From NCBI GenBank assembly GCA_964450375.1, contig CAYVEW010000005.1, positions 1-62,802 on the forward strand: 62,802 nucleotides of DNA, in the 5' to 3' direction. Origin of the DNA: an uncultured Bacteroidales bacterium (GTDB lineage Bacteria; Bacteroidota; Bacteroidia; Bacteroidales; UBA12077). A model generated the notes under the pieces. That model made no database searches, was not told the origin of the DNA, and saw only the letters and a list, made by a program, of their open reading frames with translations. Positions 12,933 through 61,977 of the stretch are shown here, one piece after another (the stretch's first letter is position 1; each line of letters begins with the position of its first letter). The translations under genes were made by a program, and so were the position numbers.

Positions 12933-13637
12933 ATGAATTGTATCGTAATTGATGATGACGCCCTTTCCAGAAGAGTAATAGAAGAGTTTATTACTCGTAC
13001 CGATTTTCTTGAACTGAAATACTCATTTCAAACAGCGGTTGACTCTATAAATGTAATTAATCAGGAACAAGATAATATTGACCTGATTTTTTTAGATATA
13101 GAAATGCCTGAAATGGATGGAATAGACTTTTTAAATACTTTAAAAAACCTACCACAGGTTATTATTGTATCATCCAAAGAAAAATATGCGCTGGAAGCTT
13201 TCGATTACGATGTAACAGATTATTTGCTTAAACCGGTTAATTATGGAAGGTTTTATAAGGCCGCACTAAAAGCAAAAAATATACAGGAATCAAGAAATAA
13301 ACAAACGGTTGATGAGATTTTTATTAAGAAAAATTCAGCCCTTGTTCGTCTAAAATACGAAGATATTTTATGGGTGGAAGCATTAGAAAATTATGTAATA
13401 TTAAATGCTTTTAACGAAAAGTTCACCATTCACTTTACAATGAAATCCATTGAAAACCAGCTGCCTGTAAAGCAGTTTAAGCGGGTGCACCGATCATATA
13501 TTGTGAATGTTAGAAAAATTGACAGAATAGAAGATAACTCAGTATACATAAAGCATAACGAAGGATTAAAGGGGATACCCATTGGCAAAGCATATAAAGA
13601 TAAATTTATGAATGATATAAATCTAATGGGTAAATAA
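12933..13637 (+). CDS. LytTR family response regulator
   Basis: Receiver (VIDDD, FLDIEMP, YLLKP) plus LytTR domain (FKRVHRSYIVN, IPIGKAYK). Confidence 0.95.
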   Translation: MNCIVIDDDALSRRVIEEFITRTDFLELKYSFQTAVDSINVINQEQDNIDLIFLDIEMPEMDGIDFLNTLKNLPQVIIVSSKEKYALEAFDYDVTDYLLKPVNYGRFYKAALKAKNIQESRNKQTVDEIFIKKNSALVRLKYEDILWVEALENYVILNAFNEKFTIHFTMKSIENQLPVKQFKRVHRSYIVNVRKIDRIEDNSVYIKHNEGLKGIPIGKAYKDKFMNDINLMGK

Positions 13638-22367: not shown

Positions 22368-23564
22368 ATGGAAAATGTTTCATTAAGAGTAGCCAGTTTA
22401 GCGGTATCGCAAACTTTAGAAATGAGTCAGAAGAGCAGAGATCTGCAAGCTCAAGGCTACGATATCATTAATTTAAGTGTTGGTGAACCTGATTTTAACA
22501 CGCCGGAGCATATTAAGGAAGCTGCTATAAAGGCAATTAACGAAAATTATAGTCATTATACCCCTGTTCCCGGATATCCGGCATTATTGGAAGCAATTTC
22601 CAACAAACTGAAAAGAGAAAACAACCTGGATTATGCAAAAGACCAGATTGTGGTATCGTGTGGTGCAAAGCATTCACTGGCTAATGTAATTTTATCTTTG
22701 GTTAATAAAGGTGATGAGGTAATTGTACCAGCTCCTTATTGGGTAAGTTATGTGGAGATGGTTAAGCTGGCCGAAGGAGTGAATGTGGTTGTAGAAACAG
22801 GTATTGATCATGATTTTAAAATTACACCTGAGCAATTAAAAAACGCAATTACGCCTAAAACAAAGGCGGTATTTTTATGTTCTCCATCAAATCCTACCGG
22901 TAGCTTATATTCAAAAGATGAATTAAAGGCTCTTGCTGAAGTTATTGCAAATGCTGATCACGATATTTATATCTTGTCGGATGAAATTTATGAACACATT
23001 AATTTTGTTGGGAAGCATGAAAGTATAGCGCAGTTTGATTTTATTCGCGATAAAGTTATTATTATCAATGGTGTATCGAAAGGATACGCAATGACCGGTT
23101 GGCGCATTGGATTTATTGCAGCTCCTAAATGGATCGCGAAAGCTTGCACAAAAATTCAAGGACAGGTTACTTCTGGCGTTACATCCATATCGCAAATGGC
23201 ATCGATTGCTGCATTTAATACCGAGAGCAATTGTATTACAGATATGGTTAAGGCTTTTAAACGCCGAAGAGATTTGGTGGTGGAATTAATGAAAGATATT
23301 CCGGGATTAAAGAATAATGTTCCCGAAGGTGCTTTTTATCTATTCCCTGAAGCAAAATCATATTTTGGAAAAACGGATGGAAAGCGAACCATTAAGGATG
23401 CAAATGATTTATGCATATATATTCTAGAAGAAGCACACGTTGCAACTGTTTCGGGAGATGCTTTTGGTTCTCCGGATTATATTCGGTTTTCGTATGCAAC
23501 ATCAGACGAAAGATTGAAGGAAGCATTACAACGAATGAAAACAGCCTTAGATAAACTGAAGTAA
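22368..23564 (+). CDS. Class I/II PLP aminotransferase (aspartate aminotransferase-like)
   Basis: LSVGEPDF, SPSNPTG, SDEIYE and SKGYAMTGWRIG motifs; TATCTTTG -7 element at 22253-22260. Confidence 0.95.
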   Translation: MENVSLRVASLAVSQTLEMSQKSRDLQAQGYDIINLSVGEPDFNTPEHIKEAAIKAINENYSHYTPVPGYPALLEAISNKLKRENNLDYAKDQIVVSCGAKHSLANVILSLVNKGDEVIVPAPYWVSYVEMVKLAEGVNVVVETGIDHDFKITPEQLKNAITPKTKAVFLCSPSNPTGSLYSKDELKALAEVIANADHDIYILSDEIYEHINFVGKHESIAQFDFIRDKVIIINGVSKGYAMTGWRIGFIAAPKWIAKACTKIQGQVTSGVTSISQMASIAAFNTESNCITDMVKAFKRRRDLVVELMKDIPGLKNNVPEGAFYLFPEAKSYFGKTDGKRTIKDANDLCIYILEEAHVATVSGDAFGSPDYIRFSYATSDERLKEALQRMKTALDKLK

Positions 23565-23566
23565 TT

Positions 23567-23595
23567 AAAAATCCGGGAGTTACCCGGATTTTTTT
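23567..23595. terminator. Bidirectional terminator
   Basis: aaaaatccggg-agtta-cccggattttttt between convergent genes. Confidence 0.85.
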
Positions 23596-25453
23596 AATCT
23601 TGTTTTTCTATATGCTTGCAAATAGTGGCGTACAATTCTTTTATGTTAATAGGTTTTGAAATATAATCGTCGCAACCGGCTTTAAAACTTTTTTCTTTTT
23701 CCGACGACATGGTAAAGGCTGTTTGAACAATAATCGGAATATTCGGATTGATTTGTTTTATTTGCGTAGTAGCTTCTATTCCATCCATTACAGGCATTCT
23801 AATATCCATTAAAATCGCATCAATATCGGGATTCATTTTAAAGAATTTTACTGCATCTTTTCCATTTTCGGCATGTATAATTTCTACGTTTGTTTTTTGC
23901 AAGGATTTCTTTAGAAGTAGAAAGTTAGCTTCATCATCTTCGGCAATTAAAATGGTTTTTCCTGTCCAGTCATAATCTAATTTTGATTTTATATCTAGTT
24001 TATCAAAAGATATTTTAAAGCCAATAACCAAAATATCATCGAGTTGTTTGCGATCTCCTTTCCATTGTTCAAATGTGCGTTCCAGAATATACCTTTGTTC
24101 ATCAAGCGATTTTTCGCAATTTTCAAGGAGCAGGTTTCTAAAATTTGTAGCCAGGAATTTTCTTCCGGATTCGCCGCCAAACTGATCTGAAAAGCCATCG
24201 GAAAAAATATAAATTAAATCGTCTTGTTCAAGTTTAATTTCATGATTTTCAAATGATTCTTTAGCACGCCTATGTATTCCTATGGGCATTCTGTCGGCTT
24301 TGTATTCAATTAATTGGTTATTTCGGATTAAATAGAGTGGGTTATTGGCCCCTGCATATTCAATTACCTTTTTTTTGTGATTAATAATACAAAGAGCTAC
24401 ATCCATTCCATCCCGGCTTTCACCTAAGGAACCTGTTTGCCGCAACGAACTTATAATGTGCATCCGAAGTTCGTTTAGTATTTCATTGGCATGCACATTA
24501 GGATTTTTATTCACTATTTCATTTAAAAAGGTAATTCCCAACATGCTCATTAGCGCACCGGGGACTCCATGTCCGGTGCAGTCTGCTGCAGCAATAAAAA
24601 TTTTTTCGTCGACTTGCTTGGTCCAGTAAAAATCGCCACTAACAATATCGCGGGGTTTATAAAAAATAAAATGCTCCGATAAAAGGTGTTGTATAAATCT
24701 GTTTGGAGGAAGAACAGCAGATTGAATTCGTTTAGCGTAAATAATACTGTCTTCAATTTTTTTCTTTTGTATTTGCACTAAATCGTGCTGCTTTTTTATT
24801 TTGTGCTTTTGTTCGGCAATTTTATCTCCCTGTTTCATGATGAAATTCAGGTCGGTTTCCATCAATTCCTTTTGTTTTGAAATTTCAGTCTTTTCAATAG
24901 CTAAATTGTCTCTTTCTTTCTGGATCTTAGCTCGTTGGTTCTGGATTAGATCACCTTGCTTGATATAAAAATCCATTTCTTTTTCAAGCTCAGCTATTCG
25001 TTTTAAGTTTTCTGCTAATTCTTTTTCGTATTTTTTTTCTTCCGATTTTATTTTCGATATATCATTGGCAAGTAATACGTATCCCAGGTTTTCTTCTTTT
25101 TCGTTTTTTATTTCCGAAATTCGTGCCTGAAAATAGAAGTTATCTACTTTATTGGGTACTGTAAATTCAAACTCCTGGTTAATGGAAGTATCTTTTAATT
25201 TAATAAGAAATCGTTCAAGTTTTCGATGAAAATCATCGCTAATAAAAGCTTTACTATAATGTTTGCCAATTATGGATTTCGGATCAATATCAATCAAATT
25301 ATTCGATGAAGGAAACTGAACATTAACATATTCACCTTCGGGATTTAAAATAAACAAGAAATCACTCAGGGATGAGATGGTAAAAAATATATCTTTCTTA
25401 CTTAATTCGGTCTTGATAAATTCAAGGTCTTTATTTGATCCATCTTTTAGCAT
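23594..25453 (-). CDS. PAS - coiled coil - SpoIIE/PP2C phosphatase - receiver protein
   Basis: PAS-like N-terminus; PP2C motifs VSGDFYW, ADCTGHGVPGA, DGMD, FSDGFSDQFGG and DDILVIG; C-terminal REC (AEDD, MDIRMP, ISKP). Confidence 0.9.
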   Translation of the reverse strand: MLKDGSNKDLEFIKTELSKKDIFFTISSLSDFLFILNPEGEYVNVQFPSSNNLIDIDPKSIIGKHYSKAFISDDFHRKLERFLIKLKDTSINQEFEFTVPNKVDNFYFQARISEIKNEKEENLGYVLLANDISKIKSEEKKYEKELAENLKRIAELEKEMDFYIKQGDLIQNQRAKIQKERDNLAIEKTEISKQKELMETDLNFIMKQGDKIAEQKHKIKKQHDLVQIQKKKIEDSIIYAKRIQSAVLPPNRFIQHLLSEHFIFYKPRDIVSGDFYWTKQVDEKIFIAAADCTGHGVPGALMSMLGITFLNEIVNKNPNVHANEILNELRMHIISSLRQTGSLGESRDGMDVALCIINHKKKVIEYAGANNPLYLIRNNQLIEYKADRMPIGIHRRAKESFENHEIKLEQDDLIYIFSDGFSDQFGGESGRKFLATNFRNLLLENCEKSLDEQRYILERTFEQWKGDRKQLDDILVIGFKISFDKLDIKSKLDYDWTGKTILIAEDDEANFLLLKKSLQKTNVEIIHAENGKDAVKFFKMNPDIDAILMDIRMPVMDGIEATTQIKQINPNIPIIVQTAFTMSSEKEKSFKAGCDDYISKPINIKELYATICKHIEKQD

Positions 25454-25456
25454 AGT

Positions 25457-25825
25457 TTAATTCATTAAAATGTTTTTTACTTTTCGTAAAACGTTATTTA
25501 CATCAATGGGTTTATTTAACAGGCCAACCGCACCTGCATTAATTGCCTTTTCATTTATTCCGTCATCGTTTCTTGCAGTTATAAACAAAACCGGAATGTG
25601 ATTTGTTTCCGGACAATTTTTTATTTCATTCAACAACGAAAAACCATCCTGATCAGGCATCATAATATCCAGCAAAATTAAACCGGGTTTTTCGACCTTT
25701 AATATTTTAAGCGCTTCTTTAGCACTGAAGGCAATGGTTGAATCAATACCTTCCAAATCCAGAATACTCTGTAAAAGAAAATTATTGGTGTTTGAATCGT
25801 CGATTATTAACACTTTCTTATTCAT
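25457..25825 (-). CDS. Single-domain response regulator
   Basis: IIDDS, LLDIMMPDQDG, FITA and LLNKP motifs. Confidence 0.92.
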   Translation of the reverse strand: MNKKVLIIDDSNTNNFLLQSILDLEGIDSTIAFSAKEALKILKVEKPGLILLDIMMPDQDGFSLLNEIKNCPETNHIPVLFITARNDDGINEKAINAGAVGLLNKPIDVNNVLRKVKNILMN

Positions 25826-25836
25826 CACTACAAGAT

Positions 25837-26898
25837 CTATTTTTTATTATTTATGTAATCGAGTAATCGTTTTTTGTTACTTTCAAAACCAATTGCCTGG
25901 CTCACTGTGGTGTAATAATCCGTTGGATCCATCACAAAATCATAAGCATAAAAAGCAATATCTAACCTGGAATTTTCGTAATCAAATAAATCGATGATCC
26001 CTTTAATTTGCTCAGATGTAAAACATTTCTTTGTTTGAATAAGATGTTTTGCAGAATTTAGCTTTGTTGAGTTAAATTTTTCGTTCCGAATTGTGCTTAT
26101 TACTTGATTATACTCACTTTCGCTTACTTTACAGCTGTTGTCGGCGGTTGAGCCTTGCGAACTTAAAAAGTTCATGAATTCACTTCTTACTTTCGGAGTA
26201 CTGAAAACTTGTTTCATTTCGATGTAATTGTCCAAATCGTAAACCGAATTTAAAGCTTCTTTTGCAAAAGAGAGTCGAAAGTATTCTTTATTTAATAGCG
26301 AAGCAATTTTCATTAAATGAGCAGTGGCGAGACAATGATTTCTAACAAAATCAATTGCATTATTATAACGCGCTTCATCATCTTTAATTTCATATATTTT
26401 TTTAACGGCCAGATCAAAACGATGTTCAGGAATTAAGTCGTGGCAGTTTTTGTTTCCGGAATATAACCTGTACGAAGGATATTTATAATCGGGGAATTGA
26501 ATGCCGTTAGTTGTTTCTTCGCTGGTGTCGTTATTTTCCTGGTTTAAGCCTTGGATAAAGTCATGCAATCTGAAAACTACTGAGTAATAAAGGAATGCAT
26601 CATACACATCGTAAAAATTCTCTTTATCTGTTGTGTTAGGATAAGCTATTTTTGCAAACTCATATCGATCGTAATCGTTTTCGAACAATGCTGCCAGCTC
26701 TTTTACCTGTGCGCTCGAAAAACAGTAGTTTGTTGCTATTTGTTTTGCGGTAGTAAGTTTGGTATTTTCGGTAGGCCTGTTTTTTATTTGATTGTATTTC
26801 TGTTGAAATTGCTGATTTGGTAAAGGCTGGGTGCAATTTTGTGCATATACTATTCCTCCCAATGCTGTTAATAGAATAAAAACAACAAGTTTTTTCAT
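25837..26898 (-). CDS. Secreted protein with three DUF4476-like repeats
   Basis: Signal peptide; three units of the type KL..AK......CF.S.Q.K.....F..D..R...AK.AY....D..NY. Confidence 0.78.
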   Translation of the reverse strand: MKKLVVFILLTALGGIVYAQNCTQPLPNQQFQQKYNQIKNRPTENTKLTTAKQIATNYCFSSAQVKELAALFENDYDRYEFAKIAYPNTTDKENFYDVYDAFLYYSVVFRLHDFIQGLNQENNDTSEETTNGIQFPDYKYPSYRLYSGNKNCHDLIPEHRFDLAVKKIYEIKDDEARYNNAIDFVRNHCLATAHLMKIASLLNKEYFRLSFAKEALNSVYDLDNYIEMKQVFSTPKVRSEFMNFLSSQGSTADNSCKVSESEYNQVISTIRNEKFNSTKLNSAKHLIQTKKCFTSEQIKGIIDLFDYENSRLDIAFYAYDFVMDPTDYYTTVSQAIGFESNKKRLLDYINNKK

Positions 26899-26958
26899 AA
26901 GCTCGAATGTTAATTTTGTTGATTAAACTATTTGTAAAAAAACAAATAGCGAGAATTT

Positions 26959-27327
26959 TTATAATTCTTCGTATTCAATATATTTAAATGGGATACCAAT
27001 TATAGATTCAAAGTATTGTCCTGATTCCAATACATCCAGATCGCCTTCTTCGTAAAACCAGTTAACCAGAATATTAGAATTGTTGGGGTTATTCTCCAAT
27101 AAACGAAGCATTTCTAAAATGAATTTAGATGAACTGGTGTTAAAGTATTCTAATTTAATGTCAACACGAATCTCAGAAGCAGTAAATTCTCTTGTCCAGT
27201 CGAGAAGTGGTTTGAAAAATGATGCAGCATCTTCAGGTATCGATCGCCCCTCAATTTTCAGAACACCATTAGCACTTAATGCAACGGAAGGAGTTTTTTC
27301 TGTTTCCTTTATAATTAAATCTTTCAT
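26959..27327 (-). CDS. siaC: SiaC family (DUF1987) phosphoprotein
   Basis: T..TP.V, I.GRSIPE, LEYFNTSSSK (phospho-Thr motif) and VNWFYEE.D.D..E.G motifs. Confidence 0.88.
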   Translation of the reverse strand: MKDLIIKETEKTPSVALSANGVLKIEGRSIPEDAASFFKPLLDWTREFTASEIRVDIKLEYFNTSSSKFILEMLRLLENNPNNSNILVNWFYEEGDLDVLESGQYFESIIGIPFKYIEYEEL

Positions 27328-27534
27328 ATCCTAATCTAAATGTTTAACCCAATTTAAGAATTTTCTTTTTCTTTTAAAAGCAAAAATCAATACTAATTTA
27401 CAACATATTTACAATAATTTGCAAATTACTTGACCGAATGTTAAAAATATTACATAATTAACCAATTTTTATCAAGAAAAGAAACCAAAATTAATATAAT
27501 TTTGTTCGGTAAATGAAGAAAAAACTGAAAAGAA

Positions 27535-28570: not shown

Positions 28571-29743
28571 TTAAGGTAATTTAAAAATGATAGGGAAAGT
28601 GAGCACTACATCAGCAGGCTCTCCATCTTTTTTACCCGGTTTCCATTTAGGGGAACTATAAACCAGTCGTAATGCTTCCTGATCGAGCGATGGGTGCACT
28701 CCGCGAGCAACTTTAGCATCTTTAATGTAGCCATTCTTAGCTACTGTAAACTGTACATAAACAGTTCCTTTAATTCCTTTTGTTAAGGCTTCTTGAGGAT
28801 AGTTTATATTGTTATTTAAGTATTTTTTAAAATCTTTGATTTCACCAATGAATTTAGGCATATCATCAACCACAAAATAGATTTCTTCAGCATTGTTTTG
28901 GTTTAAATCCTTATTTTCTTCTTGGGATGTGGGAGTTATAACTTCTTCTTCAGGTTCTGTTCGGTAGAATTTATCTACAAAGGATAAAAGAACAACAGAT
29001 TCGGATGTTACTGATGAATTGTTTTTAACGATTATATGATATACAGCAGTATTGCTTATATCGAATAAGTTGTATGATATTTCATTATTTATGTTGATCG
29101 ATTTAGGCTTTAATCTTTTTTCAGATTTACTTTCAATGAGTTGTAATTCAAATTGGCCGGGTGTATTTTGAAAAACTGACAACGAATACGTGTTGTTTTT
29201 AGATAATACAACGGAGTATCTGGCATCTTTATGGGGTTCGATCTTATTAGTAAAATCCTTTAAATATGTATCCTTGCTTACATTTAACAGTTTTTCAAGT
29301 TTTGGATTTTGCACAATGGTTTCGTGTTGTTCTAATTTTTTGGCTGTGCTTAATAAAATGGTGCTCGAAATAGCTTTATCTGATGTGTTCTTAACATTTA
29401 AGATGTATTTTTGCTCCTTATTGCTTTTTGTGGAGAAATTAAAGATTCCAACTGTTTCGTCCTTTGTGCTGTAAATAGTATATCCATAATTATTAAATAA
29501 GGTAAGCCGAAACTGTTTATAATCTTTCATATTTGCAAACCATTCATAGATTGTTCGTTTCTCTAGCTCAATAATAAACTGGGTTTCTTCGCCGGGTTTT
29601 AGCTTAAAAGCAAAGTCTTTTATATAGGTGTTTTTACCGGCAGCCTTTAGCAATTCTTTTAAATCGGGGTGTTCTCCCGGAGTAAAAGAGTAAGTGGCAT
29701 GTACATAAAAAACAGTTATTAGGATTAAAATATATTTTTTCAT
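28571..29743 (-). CDS. TonB C-terminal domain protein with two N-terminal tandem repeat domains
   Basis: C-terminal VDDMPKF..YPQEAL..GIKGTVYVQFTV..LDQEALRLV...PKWKPG; internal duplication TYIKDF / TYLKDF. Confidence 0.85.
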   Translation of the reverse strand: MKKYILILITVFYVHATYSFTPGEHPDLKELLKAAGKNTYIKDFAFKLKPGEETQFIIELEKRTIYEWFANMKDYKQFRLTLFNNYGYTIYSTKDETVGIFNFSTKSNKEQKYILNVKNTSDKAISSTILLSTAKKLEQHETIVQNPKLEKLLNVSKDTYLKDFTNKIEPHKDARYSVVLSKNNTYSLSVFQNTPGQFELQLIESKSEKRLKPKSININNEISYNLFDISNTAVYHIIVKNNSSVTSESVVLLSFVDKFYRTEPEEEVITPTSQEENKDLNQNNAEEIYFVVDDMPKFIGEIKDFKKYLNNNINYPQEALTKGIKGTVYVQFTVAKNGYIKDAKVARGVHPSLDQEALRLVYSSPKWKPGKKDGEPADVVLTFPIIFKLP

Positions 29744-29754
29744 GATTTTAAGTT

Positions 29755-30690
29755 TTAGTGAATAATAATTTTGCTTCCATCCGCGGAGATTTGGCAGTTG
29801 AACTGTAATTGAATTTTATCCAGAATATAATCAATTTCTAAGTTGGTGTACTGAGCGCTTATTTTTTGTGTACTCAGCTTTTTATTTTCAACTTGCATTG
29901 GAATGTTAAAATGTTTTGAGATGTCTTCGATTACTGAATATAAAGGCGTCTGGTCAAATTTCAACACTCCGGTATGCCAGGCCAGATAATTCTTATTGGT
30001 TTGTTGCTCAACGGCCACAAAATTTGCAGTTGGGTTATATGTAGCTTTATCTCCCTTCTGCAAATTTAATTGCGTGGATGGCGGTAAATCCGGATTGTAT
30101 AAATTGATTTCACCATCTTCAAGATTTGCAACTAACTGACCAGGTGTATTTGTATTAATCGTAAAATTGGCTTTTTTACCCGTAAATTGAATTCCGTTCG
30201 ATACAATAGTTACTTTCTTATCCTGATTCATATTGAAATAGGCTTCTCCTTCGAACTGAATTTCTGAATTTCGTTTTAAATGCATTGGGATTTTTATGGT
30301 ACTTCCTGAGTTTAAATATACTGTAAACTGCTCGTTTACATGAAGTGTAACTTTTTCTCCCTGCTCAACCGTTATTTCGGCATACCGAACGGGTTTTGTA
30401 AATGATCGATATTCAATGATTGCGAACAGGAGTATTGTTGTTAAAATAACCGTATATGCTGGTTTTAAAATCGGTTTAAAGTTTAAATAAGGTAATAATG
30501 TTCTTAAATTTTGAATAAAACGATTGGTAGTATTTAGTTTTTTGTTGATCTGTTGGTACGATTTCAGTATATCAGAATCATCAGCTTTGAAATTAAGCTC
30601 AGAAAACAAAAGATTGTTCGATTCCATTAGTTGATCCAAATCAAACTGATCTTTTTTATTTTGTTTCAATGTATTTCTCAAATTTTTCAT
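29755..30690 (-). CDS. FecR family anti-sigma factor
   Basis: TM helix, VYLNSGSTI, FEGEAYF and C-terminal AW..G.L.F..TPL..V...I. Start moved to ATG 30690 because a promoter motif overlaps ATG 30720. Confidence 0.88.
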   Translation of the reverse strand: MKNLRNTLKQNKKDQFDLDQLMESNNLLFSELNFKADDSDILKSYQQINKKLNTTNRFIQNLRTLLPYLNFKPILKPAYTVILTTILLFAIIEYRSFTKPVRYAEITVEQGEKVTLHVNEQFTVYLNSGSTIKIPMHLKRNSEIQFEGEAYFNMNQDKKVTIVSNGIQFTGKKANFTINTNTPGQLVANLEDGEINLYNPDLPPSTQLNLQKGDKATYNPTANFVAVEQQTNKNYLAWHTGVLKFDQTPLYSVIEDISKHFNIPMQVENKKLSTQKISAQYTNLEIDYILDKIQLQFNCQISADGSKIIIH

Positions 30691-30701
30691 TGTACTTATA
30701 T

Positions 30702-30727
30702 AACGTTTCTTAAAATTCATAACCCTA
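30702..30727 (-). promoter_or_regulatory. Putative ECF promoter TAGGG-N17-CGTT upstream of fecR
   Basis: Same spacing as the site upstream of the sigma gene (31296-31321). Confidence 0.6.
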
Positions 30728-31279
30728 AAATTTTAAGTGATCTTTAAAAGGTTCTAAATAAACCCGCATTTTTTTATAAGCGATTGTAAGTTGATTTTCA
30801 ACTGTTTTTGTAGAGATATTAAGATATTGCGCAATTTCTTTAACACTTAAGCCTTCCTGTTTTGCAAGCCGAAATATTTCTTTCGCTTTTTTGGGCAGCT
30901 GGTCAATAGCCGATTCCAGTATGGCTTTTATCTTGTAATGATCGGTGGGCTCCGCTTTATCGTTTGTTAGAATTTCAGGGGTTACAGCATTTTCATACTT
31001 TTTGCGGGTATTTATTTTTCTGATTTCATCAATAATTTCGTTGCGTGTATAGGTGAAAAGAAGCTTTCCGATTTCATCATCAGAATTCAGGTTTTTAGAA
31101 TTTTTCCAAATCTTAATAAAACTATTTTGGACTGATTCTTCGGCAATACTGCTGGAGTTACAAAAGTTACAGGCAAATCGATAGAGTGGTTTATAATATT
31201 TAAAAAACAGCGAATCGAAAGCAAGTTTGTTTCCTTGCCTGATTTTCTGAATTAAAATATGATCGGGAGTATGCTGCAT
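30725..31279 (-). CDS. ECF RNA polymerase sigma-70 factor (FecI-like)
   Basis: AFDSLFFKYY..L..FA, VQNSFIKIW, AIDQLP...IF.L...EGLS.KEIA..LNIS.KTVENQL. Confidence 0.95.
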   Translation of the reverse strand: MQHTPDHILIQKIRQGNKLAFDSLFFKYYKPLYRFACNFCNSSSIAEESVQNSFIKIWKNSKNLNSDDEIGKLLFTYTRNEIIDEIRKINTRKKYENAVTPEILTNDKAEPTDHYKIKAILESAIDQLPKKAKEIFRLAKQEGLSVKEIAQYLNISTKTVENQLTIAYKKMRVYLEPFKDHLKF

Positions 31280-59742: not shown

Positions 59743-61977
59743 ATGAGCGAATTAATTATTGTTGGCCTGCTGCAGAATATCGCAATTCTCTTAGCATTTA
59801 GTATGCTTTACGATTACGTTTGGGTAAAGGCCGAAGAAAATAAAAGTATTCTTACCAAAGTTATTACAGGAATTGTTCTCGGATTCATAGGTATTGTACT
59901 TATGCTTACACCATGGACCTTGTATCCGGGCGTGGTTTTCGATACCAGGTCAATTATGCTTGCTGTTTCGGGTTTATTTTTTGGTGGTATTCCAACTGCG
60001 GTTGCTATTCTTTTAACATCGGCTTACCGAATTTTTATGGGTGGCGATGGCATGCTCATGGGTATAGCAGTAATTCTTACTTCAGGTATTATTGGGATTG
60101 TATGGGGTAAATTAAGTAATGAAAAAAAATACACCAAGCCACTACAGCTTTATTACCTTGGATTTGCAGCACACATAACCATGTTGCTCTGTACTTTATT
60201 TCTTCCTTCGGACAAAGCATTGGACACTTTAAAAACAATTGCCATTCCGGTAATGGTGTTATATCCCTTAGGTACCATGTTGTTGGGGCGTATATTAGCA
60301 AAACAAAAACAAAGCTGGATAAATAAAAAAGCTTTACACGAAAGTGAGCAACGATGGTTATTTGCTTTGGAAGGAAGTGGCGACGGTGTGTGGGACTGGA
60401 ATATTAAAACCAACGAAGTTTATTATTCGAAGCAATGGAAAACCATGTTGGGGTACGAAGAGCATGAAATTGAAGATTCCTTGGCGGAATGGGATAAACG
60501 TGTTCATCCTGATGATAAGGATGATGTTTATAAGGACTTAAAGCTACATATGGATGGAAAAACAGATCATTATTCGAATGAGCATCGGGTATTGTGTAAA
60601 GATGGAAGCTATAAGTGGATTTTAGACAGAGGGAAAATAATGGAGCGTGATGAAAATAATAAACCTTTACGCATTATTGGTACACATAAAGATATTTCTG
60701 AAAGTAAGAAGTACGAAGAAAAACTAAAACAGAGTAACGAAGAATATATCTCCTTAAACGAAGAATATATATCACAAAACGAAGAGTTGGAAGAGAACCT
60801 GGAAAGGACAGAAAAATTAATAGCTGAGCTTGAAGTTGCTAAAAAACGAGCCGAAGAAAGCGATCGATTAAAATCGGCCTTCCTGGCTAATATGAGTCAT
60901 GAGATTCGAACACCAATGAATTCAATTATTGGATTTTCTGAACTTTTGGGTAAAGGAGCGAGCCAGAAAAAAGCAAACACGTATCTTAATTTTATAAAAA
61001 GTGCGGGTAAAAACCTGCTCAGGCTTATTGATGACATTATTGATATTTCGAAAATTGAATCGAACTTATTAAGTATCGAAGAGGATTGGTGCAATGTGAG
61101 CCAACTTCTTGAAGAGTCGGTGCTTTATTATAAGCAAACGGATATCTTTAAATCAAAGGATAAAGTAAAACTGGAATTTGAGCCTAATAATAAATTAGCA
61201 GATCTTATCTTAAAAACAGACCCCATTAGGCTAAGGCAAGTAGTAAACAACTTGATTTCCAATGCCGTTAAAAATACGGATCGTGGATATGTTAAGGTAT
61301 CGTATTTCATTAACCAAAGCAATGATCAATTACTTATTAAGGTTCAGGATACCGGAATTGGAATAAGAAAGGAAGATCAGCAAAAAATTTTCAACCGGTT
61401 TATTCAATCCGATTCCGATAAGGCAAGGATGAAAATGGGAACCGGGCTGGGGCTTAGCATTAGTAAAGGATTACTCGATTTAATGAAAGGAGGCATTGAA
61501 GTTGAATCGGAATTGGGCAAAGGTTCTGTTTTTACCATTTCGCTGCCATTAATTACATTAAACGATCAGCGTAAAACAGAACATTTGGATCCGGCAGTTG
61601 AATCGGAGTATGATTTTTCGGATAAACTCATTTACATTGCCGAAGATGATATCGCATCCTATTTATTAATTGAAGAAGTGCTGGCCGAAACCGGAGCTCA
61701 ATTAAAGCATGCAATCAATGGGTCTGTTTTACTCGATTTAATGAATGAAAAGCAACCCGATTTAATACTTTTGGATATTAATATGCCGGTAATGAATGGT
61801 TTTGAGTTTTTAGAAAAACTAAAGCAGTTAAAACTAGATATTCCTATAGTTGCACAAACCGCTTACGCCATGAAAAATGAGCGCGAACAGTGTTTAAATG
61901 CCGGCTGTACAAGTTACATTTCCAAACCCATCCATGCAGATGAGTTGTTGGATATTTTAGCATGGAACTTTAAGTAA
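59743..61977 (+). CDS. Hybrid sensor histidine kinase (5TM LytS-type, PAS, HisKA, HATPase, REC)
   Basis: FDTRSIML..SGLFFG, GDGVWDW PAS, FLANMSHEIRTPMN, NLISNAVK, GTGLGLSI and LLDINMP motifs. Confidence 0.94.
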   Translation: MSELIIVGLLQNIAILLAFSMLYDYVWVKAEENKSILTKVITGIVLGFIGIVLMLTPWTLYPGVVFDTRSIMLAVSGLFFGGIPTAVAILLTSAYRIFMGGDGMLMGIAVILTSGIIGIVWGKLSNEKKYTKPLQLYYLGFAAHITMLLCTLFLPSDKALDTLKTIAIPVMVLYPLGTMLLGRILAKQKQSWINKKALHESEQRWLFALEGSGDGVWDWNIKTNEVYYSKQWKTMLGYEEHEIEDSLAEWDKRVHPDDKDDVYKDLKLHMDGKTDHYSNEHRVLCKDGSYKWILDRGKIMERDENNKPLRIIGTHKDISESKKYEEKLKQSNEEYISLNEEYISQNEELEENLERTEKLIAELEVAKKRAEESDRLKSAFLANMSHEIRTPMNSIIGFSELLGKGASQKKANTYLNFIKSAGKNLLRLIDDIIDISKIESNLLSIEEDWCNVSQLLEESVLYYKQTDIFKSKDKVKLEFEPNNKLADLILKTDPIRLRQVVNNLISNAVKNTDRGYVKVSYFINQSNDQLLIKVQDTGIGIRKEDQQKIFNRFIQSDSDKARMKMGTGLGLSISKGLLDLMKGGIEVESELGKGSVFTISLPLITLNDQRKTEHLDPAVESEYDFSDKLIYIAEDDIASYLLIEEVLAETGAQLKHAINGSVLLDLMNEKQPDLILLDINMPVMNGFEFLEKLKQLKLDIPIVAQTAYAMKNEREQCLNAGCTSYISKPIHADELLDILAWNFK

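Follow-up and report, generated by a model that had tools for sequence, protein, structure and literature searches.

A SiaC-family switch protein gene beside a receiver-bearing SiaA-type phosphatase gene in uncultured Bacteroidales: a candidate partner-switch module without a linked kinase or cyclase

A contig of an uncultured Bacteroidales bacterium, from a lineage of marine sediment, carries a cluster of four co-oriented genes that combines siaC, the gene of a small phospho-switch protein, with the gene of a PP2C phosphatase that ends in a receiver domain. The stretch of DNA that was analysed comprises 62,802 nt (62.8 kb) and is referred to as the window; all searches of the window cover that whole stretch. 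According to the open reading frame (ORF) calls, the four genes lie on the minus strand and are separated by gaps of 60 nt, 8 nt (11 nt when counted from the ATG of the receiver gene REC1) and 3 nt. The features of the cluster and its immediate surroundings are the following.

26959-27327, minus strand: siaC, encoding a 122-aa phospho-switch protein of the SiaC family (DUF1987), whose candidate phospho-site is T64 in the motif YFNTSSSK
25837-26898, minus strand: gene of a 353-aa exported protein in which a signal peptide precedes three DUF4476 repeats
25457-25828 (GTG start) or 25457-25825 (ATG start), minus strand: REC1, a single-domain receiver of 123 aa (PF00072)
23594-25453, minus strand: gene of a 619-aa PAS/PP2C/REC protein
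25061-25366, minus strand: PAS-like input domain, residues ~30-131 of the 619-aa protein (sub-threshold PAS_9 match and AlphaFold model)
24713-25057, minus strand: long helical linker, residues 133-247 (helices of the AlphaFold model)
24011-24703, minus strand: SiaA-type PP2C domain, residues ~251-481 (profile, PDB and Foldseek matches)
23609-23959, minus strand: REC2, the C-terminal receiver (PF00072, 7.5e-27; hybrid-histidine-kinase type)
23567-23593, both strands: bidirectional intrinsic terminator, 11-bp stem with T-runs on either side
26927-26950, minus strand: hairpin after siaC (RNAfold)
27393-27425, minus strand: promoter-like block before siaC (alignment of 38 upstream regions)
22368-23564, plus strand: aminotransferase gene, convergent with the cluster and sharing its terminator

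The start codon of REC1 is probably the ATG at 25825. The terminator that closes the cluster has five G-C pairs in its 11-bp stem, a loop of 5 and T-runs on both strands, and it is common to the cluster and the convergent aminotransferase gene. A first-pass annotation of this DNA had described four co-oriented genes with short gaps and a terminal terminator, and the ORF calls together with a terminator scan agree with that description. Its domain assignments for the four genes were recovered by Pfam, with the PAS domain resting on the AlphaFold model and a Pfam score below threshold. The arrangement is not due to chance, because it was seen again in 34 species-level genomes. A profile search of the whole window found only one SiaC and only one PP2C.

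The SiaC protein matches PF09345 of Pfam over residues 6-119 of its 122 residues, scoring 110.8 bits where 24.5 bits are required (E 4e-32), and aligns over its full length with the P. aeruginosa SiaC protein (PDB 6KKO/6K4F; E 5.5e-12). In the same alignment T64 falls in the column of T68, the phospho-site of P. aeruginosa SiaC, which bears out the earlier statement that the YFNTSSSK motif is kept. The phospho-site column is occupied by T or S in all of 11 diverse SiaC sequences, which represent all clades examined, and it follows an invariant N where helix alpha2 begins. Across 39 clade loci, loci without the PP2C gene included, 77 of the 122 SiaC residues are invariant, and T64 is invariant as well. 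Judged by these alignments, T64 is a candidate for the phospho-switch residue. SiaC is structurally related to STAS proteins (PMC8457831; PMC7647112), and in P. aeruginosa the residues that touch the SiaD stalk are D79, R103, E110 and D114 (PMC8457831). The aligned positions are altered in the window's protein (D79 to R75, R103 to D98, E110 to Y105 and D114 to I109). Since the contact residues are charge-reversed or hydrophobic, a SiaD-type cyclase is an unlikely target of SiaC in this organism.

In the 619-aa protein, Pfam identifies SpoIIE (3e-20) and Response_reg (PF00072, 7.5e-27) domains, and a PAS_9 match that reaches 20.2 bits and stays under the 27-bit threshold. The AlphaFold model of this protein, made with a 38-sequence alignment, has a mean predicted local distance difference test score (pLDDT) of 85. 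In it, residues 32-131 form a five-stranded sheet of the PAS type (pLDDT 70-88), followed by helices at residues 133-165 and 176-247, then by the PP2C domain and finally by the receiver. The linker carries a duplicated DF(Y/I)(I/M)KQGD motif, and the region is kept in all PP2C-REC relatives.

Profile, sequence and fold all assign the PP2C domain specifically to the SiaA type. With the NCBIfam SiaA model, the PP2C part gives 1.6e-60, over model positions 387-657 only. A sequence search of the PDB returned the SiaA-PP2C structure 6K4E (E 5.7e-41) as the sole phosphatase-domain match among the 60 hits listed, the others aligning to the receiver. In the Foldseek comparison the domain matched 6K4E with an E of 7e-24 and a template modelling (TM) score of 0.90, while the next PP2C, RssB, followed at 4.6e-11, a gap of 13 orders of magnitude; RsbX, SpoIIE and Rv1364c came after RssB, close by. 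The catalytic residues named for SiaA are D457, D474, G477, D600, G601 and D653 (PMC7647112). Their equivalents, D274, D291, G294, D419, G420 and D472/D473, which comprise the metal-binding Asp and the motif Gly residues of SpoIIE/RsbU-type phosphatases, are all present in the alignment with SiaA and invariant in the 38-sequence alignment, in accordance with the first reading of the PP2C motifs as intact. In P. aeruginosa, SiaA dephosphorylates SiaC-T68~P (PMC7647112).

Two receivers had been taken as phosphorylatable, and the DD, D, T and K residues in both are consistent with this. REC1 (PF00072, 1.6e-25 in Pfam) keeps the residue set DD / LLD / TA(R/K) / KP, and REC2 keeps DD / LMD / QTA / KP. 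Across 38 PP2C-REC relatives, D506 and K600 of REC2 are invariant, and D550 and T578 are found in at least 90%. The best NCBIfam matches of REC2 are the receivers of BarA, LuxN and RcsC, and REC2 therewith resembles the receiver type of hybrid histidine kinases. Its closest relative within the window (87 bits) is the receiver of a hybrid histidine kinase (5TMR-LYT, PAS, HisKA, HATPase, REC) encoded at 59743-61977 on the plus strand. This kinase gene is not adjacent to the operon, and its product is a candidate, unlinked partner of REC2.

One genome per GTDB species was scanned. We identified 34 loci with a SiaC 80-96% identical to that of the window, all of which belong to uncultured Bacteroidales. 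At 34 of 34 loci siaC lies between a divergent yceG gene and the aminotransferase gene or a replacement of the latter. The gene arrangements at these loci are:

siaC-DUF4476-REC1-PP2C/REC2: 12 loci
siaC-REC1-PP2C/REC2: 13 loci
siaC-PP2C/REC2: 7 loci
siaC-REC1 only: 1 locus
contig end directly after siaC: 1 locus, uninformative

A gene for a coil-PP2C-REC protein thus stands beside siaC at 32 of the 33 informative species-level loci. Neighbourhood analysis had been proposed as a check on the siaC / PP2C-REC adjacency, and this count, together with a separate paralogous module described below, shows the adjacency to be conserved. A second species with siaC and REC1 only was found in metagenomes (L002-L004). 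One clade locus (L013, JBKHIH010000013.1) comes from a contig titled Thiohalospira sp.; gene for gene it is a Bacteroidales clade locus, with a SiaC 94% identical to the window's, and the contig is probably mis-binned or mislabelled. The median identities to the window's proteins and domains are:

SiaC: 92%
PP2C: 82%
REC2: 82%
aminotransferase (housekeeping): 80%
YceG: 71%
REC1: 59%
DUF4476: 52%
PAS: 50%

No other protein of the locus is as conserved as SiaC. From the pattern of conservation and adjacency it follows that SiaC and coil-PP2C-REC2 are the constrained core, and that the remainder is accessory.

The secreted repeat protein had been listed as a component of the operon, and it proved to be an accessory one, with a full DUF4476 gene in 12 of 34 loci and remnants elsewhere. 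The protein of the window contains three DUF4476 stretches (PF14771; 7e-40 in Pfam) behind a Sec-type signal peptide, MKKLVVFILLTALGGIVYA, with Q as the next residue. A PDB sequence search returned no relative of it. Its single-sequence AlphaFold model consists of all-alpha repeats and is poor (mean pLDDT 56), and a Foldseek search with this poor model gave generic alpha-repeat matches alone (TM ≤0.24). In at least seven loci without the full gene, the first 17-36 DUF4476 codons remain in the spacer between siaC and REC1; the remnant in L026 reads MKKFVVFILFTALTSLAFAQTDCNQPLSFQQFQQR and then a stop (tblastn E 3e-26), and six more loci have remnants at E 0.03 or better. Because such 5' remnants occur in loci that lack the gene, the DUF4476 gene is ancestral to the inner subclade and has been deleted repeatedly.

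Neither the small receiver nor the PAS domain is a fixed component of the locus. REC1 is present in 26 loci and absent in 7, and its acceptor Asp is lost in L043. At that same locus a REC-PAS-class III adenylate/guanylate cyclase is encoded two genes downstream of the operon (L043:10140-11867). In loci without REC1 the phosphatase has a degenerate receiver-like domain at its N-terminus, which replaces or precedes the PAS domain. We considered this pseudo-receiver as a fused REC1 and set the idea aside, as the scores (16-25 vs 10-14 bits) are too weak to say. Phosphatases without any N-terminal input, 494-500 aa long, were found in two species. The PAS input is interchangeable; some relatives lack it or have a pseudo-receiver in its stead.

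Upstream of siaC, a promoter-like block is formed by TTTG (27425-27422), 21 nt and TAAATTAG (27400-27393), from which the conserved run goes on as TATTGATTTTT to ~27381. The sequence TTGTAAATTAGTA-TT..TTTTT is at least 80% conserved in 38 upstream regions, those of the most distant loci, L002 and L037, included. The Bacteroidota promoter consensus is of the -33/-7 type, and the block TTTG-N21-TAAATTAG resembles it and is a putative Bacteroidota promoter, with a predicted transcription start near 27386; its strong conservation hints at an additional regulator site. A scan for sigma-70 promoters was discarded (18 sites vs 25.7 expected), that consensus being uninformative for this phylum.

The hairpin after siaC starts 9 nt behind the stop codon and has 9 bp and a UUUUUU loop, followed by UUAAUC; its folding energy is -8.7 kcal/mol, with z = -2.5 vs shuffles (RNAfold). 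Many relatives have a hairpin of different sequence at the same place, and those of L030, L034 and L039-41 combine a G+C stem with a U-run. The hairpin of the window is possibly a weak terminator, an attenuator or a 3' stabiliser, and partial termination after siaC seems a reasonable inference from its predicted fold. An Rfam scan of the operon and its leader found no known RNA family. Contigs that match all four genes are present in four marine-sediment metatranscriptomes. Run X19 covers the 60-nt gap behind siaC with contigs at 26902-27067 and 26779-26926, and run X21 with one at 26902-26988 that has no mismatch. None of the four runs has a contig over the region of the putative promoter (27269-27415). 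These contigs, which are unstranded and of low depth, fit read-through from siaC into the downstream genes.

The association of SiaC with such a phosphatase is found outside this locus as well. When 1.84 billion representative proteins were searched exhaustively, the coil-PP2C-REC core was recovered with many N-terminal inputs; among the 150 best representatives listed, ~40 match both PP2C and REC (437-1391 aa). The neighbourhoods of seven of the recovered proteins were inspected, two of them on contigs too short to show a SiaC neighbour either way. Two TPR-transmembrane-coil-PP2C-REC proteins, with a core 51-59% identical to that of the window, each directly precede a SiaC gene of 127-128 aa, and these pairs (L170:6001-8605; L176:4001-6678, L176/L177) sit in unrelated genomic contexts. 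They share with the window's module the core and its position directly beside SiaC, and differ from it by a membrane-anchored TPR input, by having the phosphatase gene first and by lacking REC1 and DUF4476. One copy lies in the window's own lineage: L170 is on contig CAZSIC010000060, in an assembly (CAZSIC01) that also holds the window-clade locus L012, and that genome therefore has two phosphatase-SiaC modules. The pairing of SiaC with the phosphatase is recurrent, not universal. Two genes for SiaA-type sensor phosphatases (L170:1609-5973 and L179:1327-4722) lie just downstream of SprB/Por_Secre_tail genes, which encode cargo of type IX secretion; these two cases, anecdotal as they are, may point to a link with the cell surface or with gliding.

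The first-pass annotation had also noted that no SiaB or GGDEF gene is adjacent to siaC, and this was upheld by a motif and a profile search of the window. The motif G[GAS][DE]EF is absent from every frame of the 62.8 kb, and a DUF6272/SiaB profile made from three Bacteroidota SiaB proteins found nothing there (best E 0.39). At 150-odd related loci, three ORFs before siaC and four to five behind it were listed, and in these a regular expression flagged no GGDEF-like motif either.

Two-gene SiaB-SiaC modules are widespread in Bacteroidota. A DUF6272/SiaB gene lies directly upstream of a 125-130-aa SiaC in 57 of 75 non-clade metagenome loci (within L095-L169), and the module is also found in L007-L010 and in L085, where it takes the form SiaB-SiaC-SiaC. 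The window's PP2C has no match near any SiaB-SiaC locus of the metagenome scan. L138, the only SiaB-SiaC locus that was scanned with Pfam, has housekeeping flanks, with RlmL, an S41 peptidase and GMP synthase upstream. A GT2/DUF2062 glycosyltransferase gene upstream of SiaB-SiaC in L007 was considered as a conserved output and rejected, as the upstream genes of L138 differ. In many Bacteroidales (L044-L089, e.g. L056:5884-8375) a lone SiaC of 124 aa, with Ser at the phospho-site, is encoded directly after tsaD, and at many such loci a ketopantoate-reductase-like gene also precedes SiaC; no signalling gene related to the window's PP2C or REC or to SiaB was seen beside these lone tsaD-linked copies. 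Four tandem SiaC paralogues (124-146 aa) are encoded at L126:4676-7856; the gene of a single-domain receiver lies two genes upstream of them. The Bacteroidota loci examined include modules of a kinase with SiaC and modules of a phosphatase with SiaC, and none with both.

Among characterized systems, SiaABCD of P. aeruginosa (PA0172-PA0169) has the same Y-x-N-T-S phospho-loop in a SiaC-family protein. SiaA-PP2C is the closest solved relative of the window's PP2C and has the same catalytic residues, and in both organisms the two genes are part of one operon-like cluster. SiaA, however, is membrane-bound and has a HAMP domain, whereas the phosphatase of the window is soluble and consists of PAS, coiled coil, PP2C and C-terminal receiver (Pfam reports no HAMP). 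The window's cluster also differs in having no adjacent SiaB kinase or SiaD cyclase and in not keeping the SiaD-contact residues. Against the NCBIfam equivalog model of SiaC (NF038265) the window's protein scores 68.5 bits vs a cut-off of 150, and against that of SiaA (NF038263, a membrane HAMP-PP2C) the phosphatase scores 205 bits vs a cut-off of 700. SiaABCD and the cluster are not orthologous: both equivalog cut-offs are missed, and SiaB and SiaD are non-adjacent. The SiaB-SiaC modules of other Bacteroidota resemble the window's module in a SiaC that is 46-52% identical, in the same phospho-loop and in having no cyclase nearby; there a kinase is found without a phosphatase, whereas here a phosphatase is found without a kinase.

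Partner switches with a receiver-controlled PP2C include RsbK-RsbY-RsbV of Bacillus cereus, HptB-HsbR-HsbA of P. aeruginosa and SypE-SypA of Vibrio fischeri, and a receiver-controlled PP2C that acts on a STAS-like switch protein (RsbY, HsbR, SypE) is an established design. The window's phosphatase likewise has a receiver fused to PP2C and, by analogy, would be expected to set the phosphorylation of a small STAS-like protein. The receiver is N-terminal in RsbY, HsbR and SypE but C-terminal here, their switch protein is a STAS protein and not DUF1987/SiaC, and here there is neither a fused or adjacent kinase domain nor an adjacent sigma or anti-sigma factor. The cluster falls outside this type, which combines a STAS antagonist with a GHKL anti-sigma-type kinase, as it has SiaC instead and no nearby kinase. 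The earlier description of the cluster as an undescribed circuit holds in that the searchable literature has no SiaC/DUF1987 outside Pseudomonas. It does not hold for the circuit logic, which is a variant and not a new kind, because the control of a STAS-like switch protein by a receiver-controlled PP2C is already established. In the literature that could be searched SiaC/DUF1987 is described for P. aeruginosa only, where the authors go no further than the suggestion that a DUF1987 protein modulates proteins adjacent to it (PMC8457831).

With moderate confidence, we interpret the cluster as a lineage-specific, c-di-GMP-independent (cyclic di-GMP-independent) variant of the Sia partner switch, in which a phosphatase gated by a receiver and by PAS determines whether SiaC is phosphorylated on Thr while the kinase and a non-SiaD-like target are encoded elsewhere. 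Starting from the gene content, residues, folds, conservation and adjacency that are observed directly, we infer that the phosphatase acts on SiaC, that REC2 and PAS gate it, and that a kinase and a target exist. The core would be SiaC and a cytoplasmic SiaA-type PP2C with two gates. REC2 would be one gate, fed by an unlinked histidine kinase or histidine phosphotransfer (Hpt) protein, and the variable N-terminal input, PAS in this window, would be the other. The active phosphatase would strip the phosphate from SiaC-T64~P, and unphosphorylated SiaC would then bind and control its target through the invariant Y-x-N-T-S loop and the alpha2/alpha3 face. This target would not be SiaD-like and would be encoded elsewhere in the genome. 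The kinase would be encoded elsewhere too, the most likely candidate being a DUF6272/SiaB-type protein as in the two-gene SiaB-SiaC modules of other Bacteroidota. REC1 may serve as an accessory receiver, that is as a phosphate sink, competitor or adaptor for the relay that feeds REC2, and the DUF4476 protein may be an accessory exported protein outside the switch. With siaC promoter-proximal, the hairpin that follows it may raise the ratio of SiaC to the enzyme.

Several observations weigh against this interpretation. No SiaB-type kinase gene was found in the window or, in the relatives, at a distance of up to 8 kb from siaC. In loci without DUF4476 and REC1 the hairpins after siaC resemble true terminators, and in such relatives siaC and the phosphatase gene may form separate transcripts; in the metatranscriptomes, DNA carry-over may account for the contigs that span the gap. 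The PP2C belongs to a very large subfamily, of which 22,779 representatives match at E < 1e-30, and three sampled members (P0126, P0136 and P0171) have no SiaC neighbour, the neighbourhoods concerned being those of a DUF4154-PAS-PP2C-REC, a bare PP2C-REC and a Y_Y_Y-PP2C protein. Two species keep siaC and REC1 without an adjacent PP2C gene. Finally, the whole yceG-aminotransferase neighbourhood is syntenic, and the adjacency could in part reflect inheritance and not selection. Some of these points would suit an explanation in which the adjacency is inherited synteny, the PP2C-REC protein acts on another substrate (e.g. a STAS anti-sigma antagonist) and SiaC is under the control of unlinked proteins. 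The frame of yceG and aminotransferase genes common to all clade loci, the probable absence of SiaC beside most members of the PP2C subfamily, the hairpins or terminators after siaC in some relatives and the two species without the PP2C gene at the locus are all in keeping with it. We nevertheless regard this explanation as unlikely: the PP2C resembles SiaA specifically, a paralogous PP2C-REC and SiaC pair with reversed gene order occurs in unrelated contexts, and the intervening genes were lost repeatedly while siaC and the phosphatase gene stayed together.

Less probable is a role of SiaC mainly with the receivers, in which it would bind REC1 and/or REC2 and modulate phosphotransfer, with Thr phosphorylation secondary or absent. 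It would account for the finding that siaC adjoins at least one receiver at every informative clade locus (33/34), for the two species with siaC and REC1 alone and for the receiver gene beside the four tandem SiaC paralogues in L126. However, REC1 diverges quickly (median 59%), 7 loci lack it and in L043 it is Asp-less, while SiaC is nearly invariant, and T or S at the phospho-site is universal in the SiaC clades examined; we also know of no interaction between SiaC and a receiver, which counts against such a role. We give still a little less credence to a Sia system of the classical kind, with the SiaB kinase and the SiaD-type diguanylate cyclase encoded elsewhere and with c-di-GMP still as its output. 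Our view is limited to 62.8 kb of the genome and SiaB-SiaC pairs are common in Bacteroidota, both of which leave room for such a system. The charge-reversed or hydrophobic residues at the SiaD-contacting positions of SiaC, the widely missed NCBIfam SiaC and SiaA equivalog cut-offs, and the fact that no GGDEF motif was found in the window or flagged in the ORFs around siaC at the 150-odd related loci argue against it.

P. aeruginosa SiaC is known from the searchable literature as the activator of one diguanylate cyclase. In the loci described here the same switch protein is strongly constrained without a linked cyclase or kinase, and is paired with a phosphatase that is predicted to read a His-Asp relay. 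If the partner-switch interpretation is correct, one branch of the very large Bacteroidota sensor PP2C family would gain its first substrate, and SiaC would be a general-purpose partner-switch module instead of a c-di-GMP accessory; the target of SiaC is the main prize of further work. A wider proposal, possible though offered only tentatively, is that Bacteroidota SiaC is the hub of a distributed, c-di-GMP-free Ser/Thr switch network. In this network DUF6272 kinases and receiver-gated SiaA-type phosphatases would be kept apart, each in a two-gene module together with a SiaC paralogue of its own, and would couple two-component relays and sensors (PAS, TPR) to an output, perhaps at the cell surface.

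Two further features of the window lie apart from the cluster. An apparent LytTR-type regulator (12933-13637), not adjacent to the operon, was assigned by eye from its translation, and its receiver alone was confirmed by profile. Beyond yceG, a cluster of an extracytoplasmic function (ECF) sigma factor, a FecR-like anti-sigma factor and a TonB_C protein is encoded at 28571-31279 on the minus strand, and it adjoins the locus in L001 as well.

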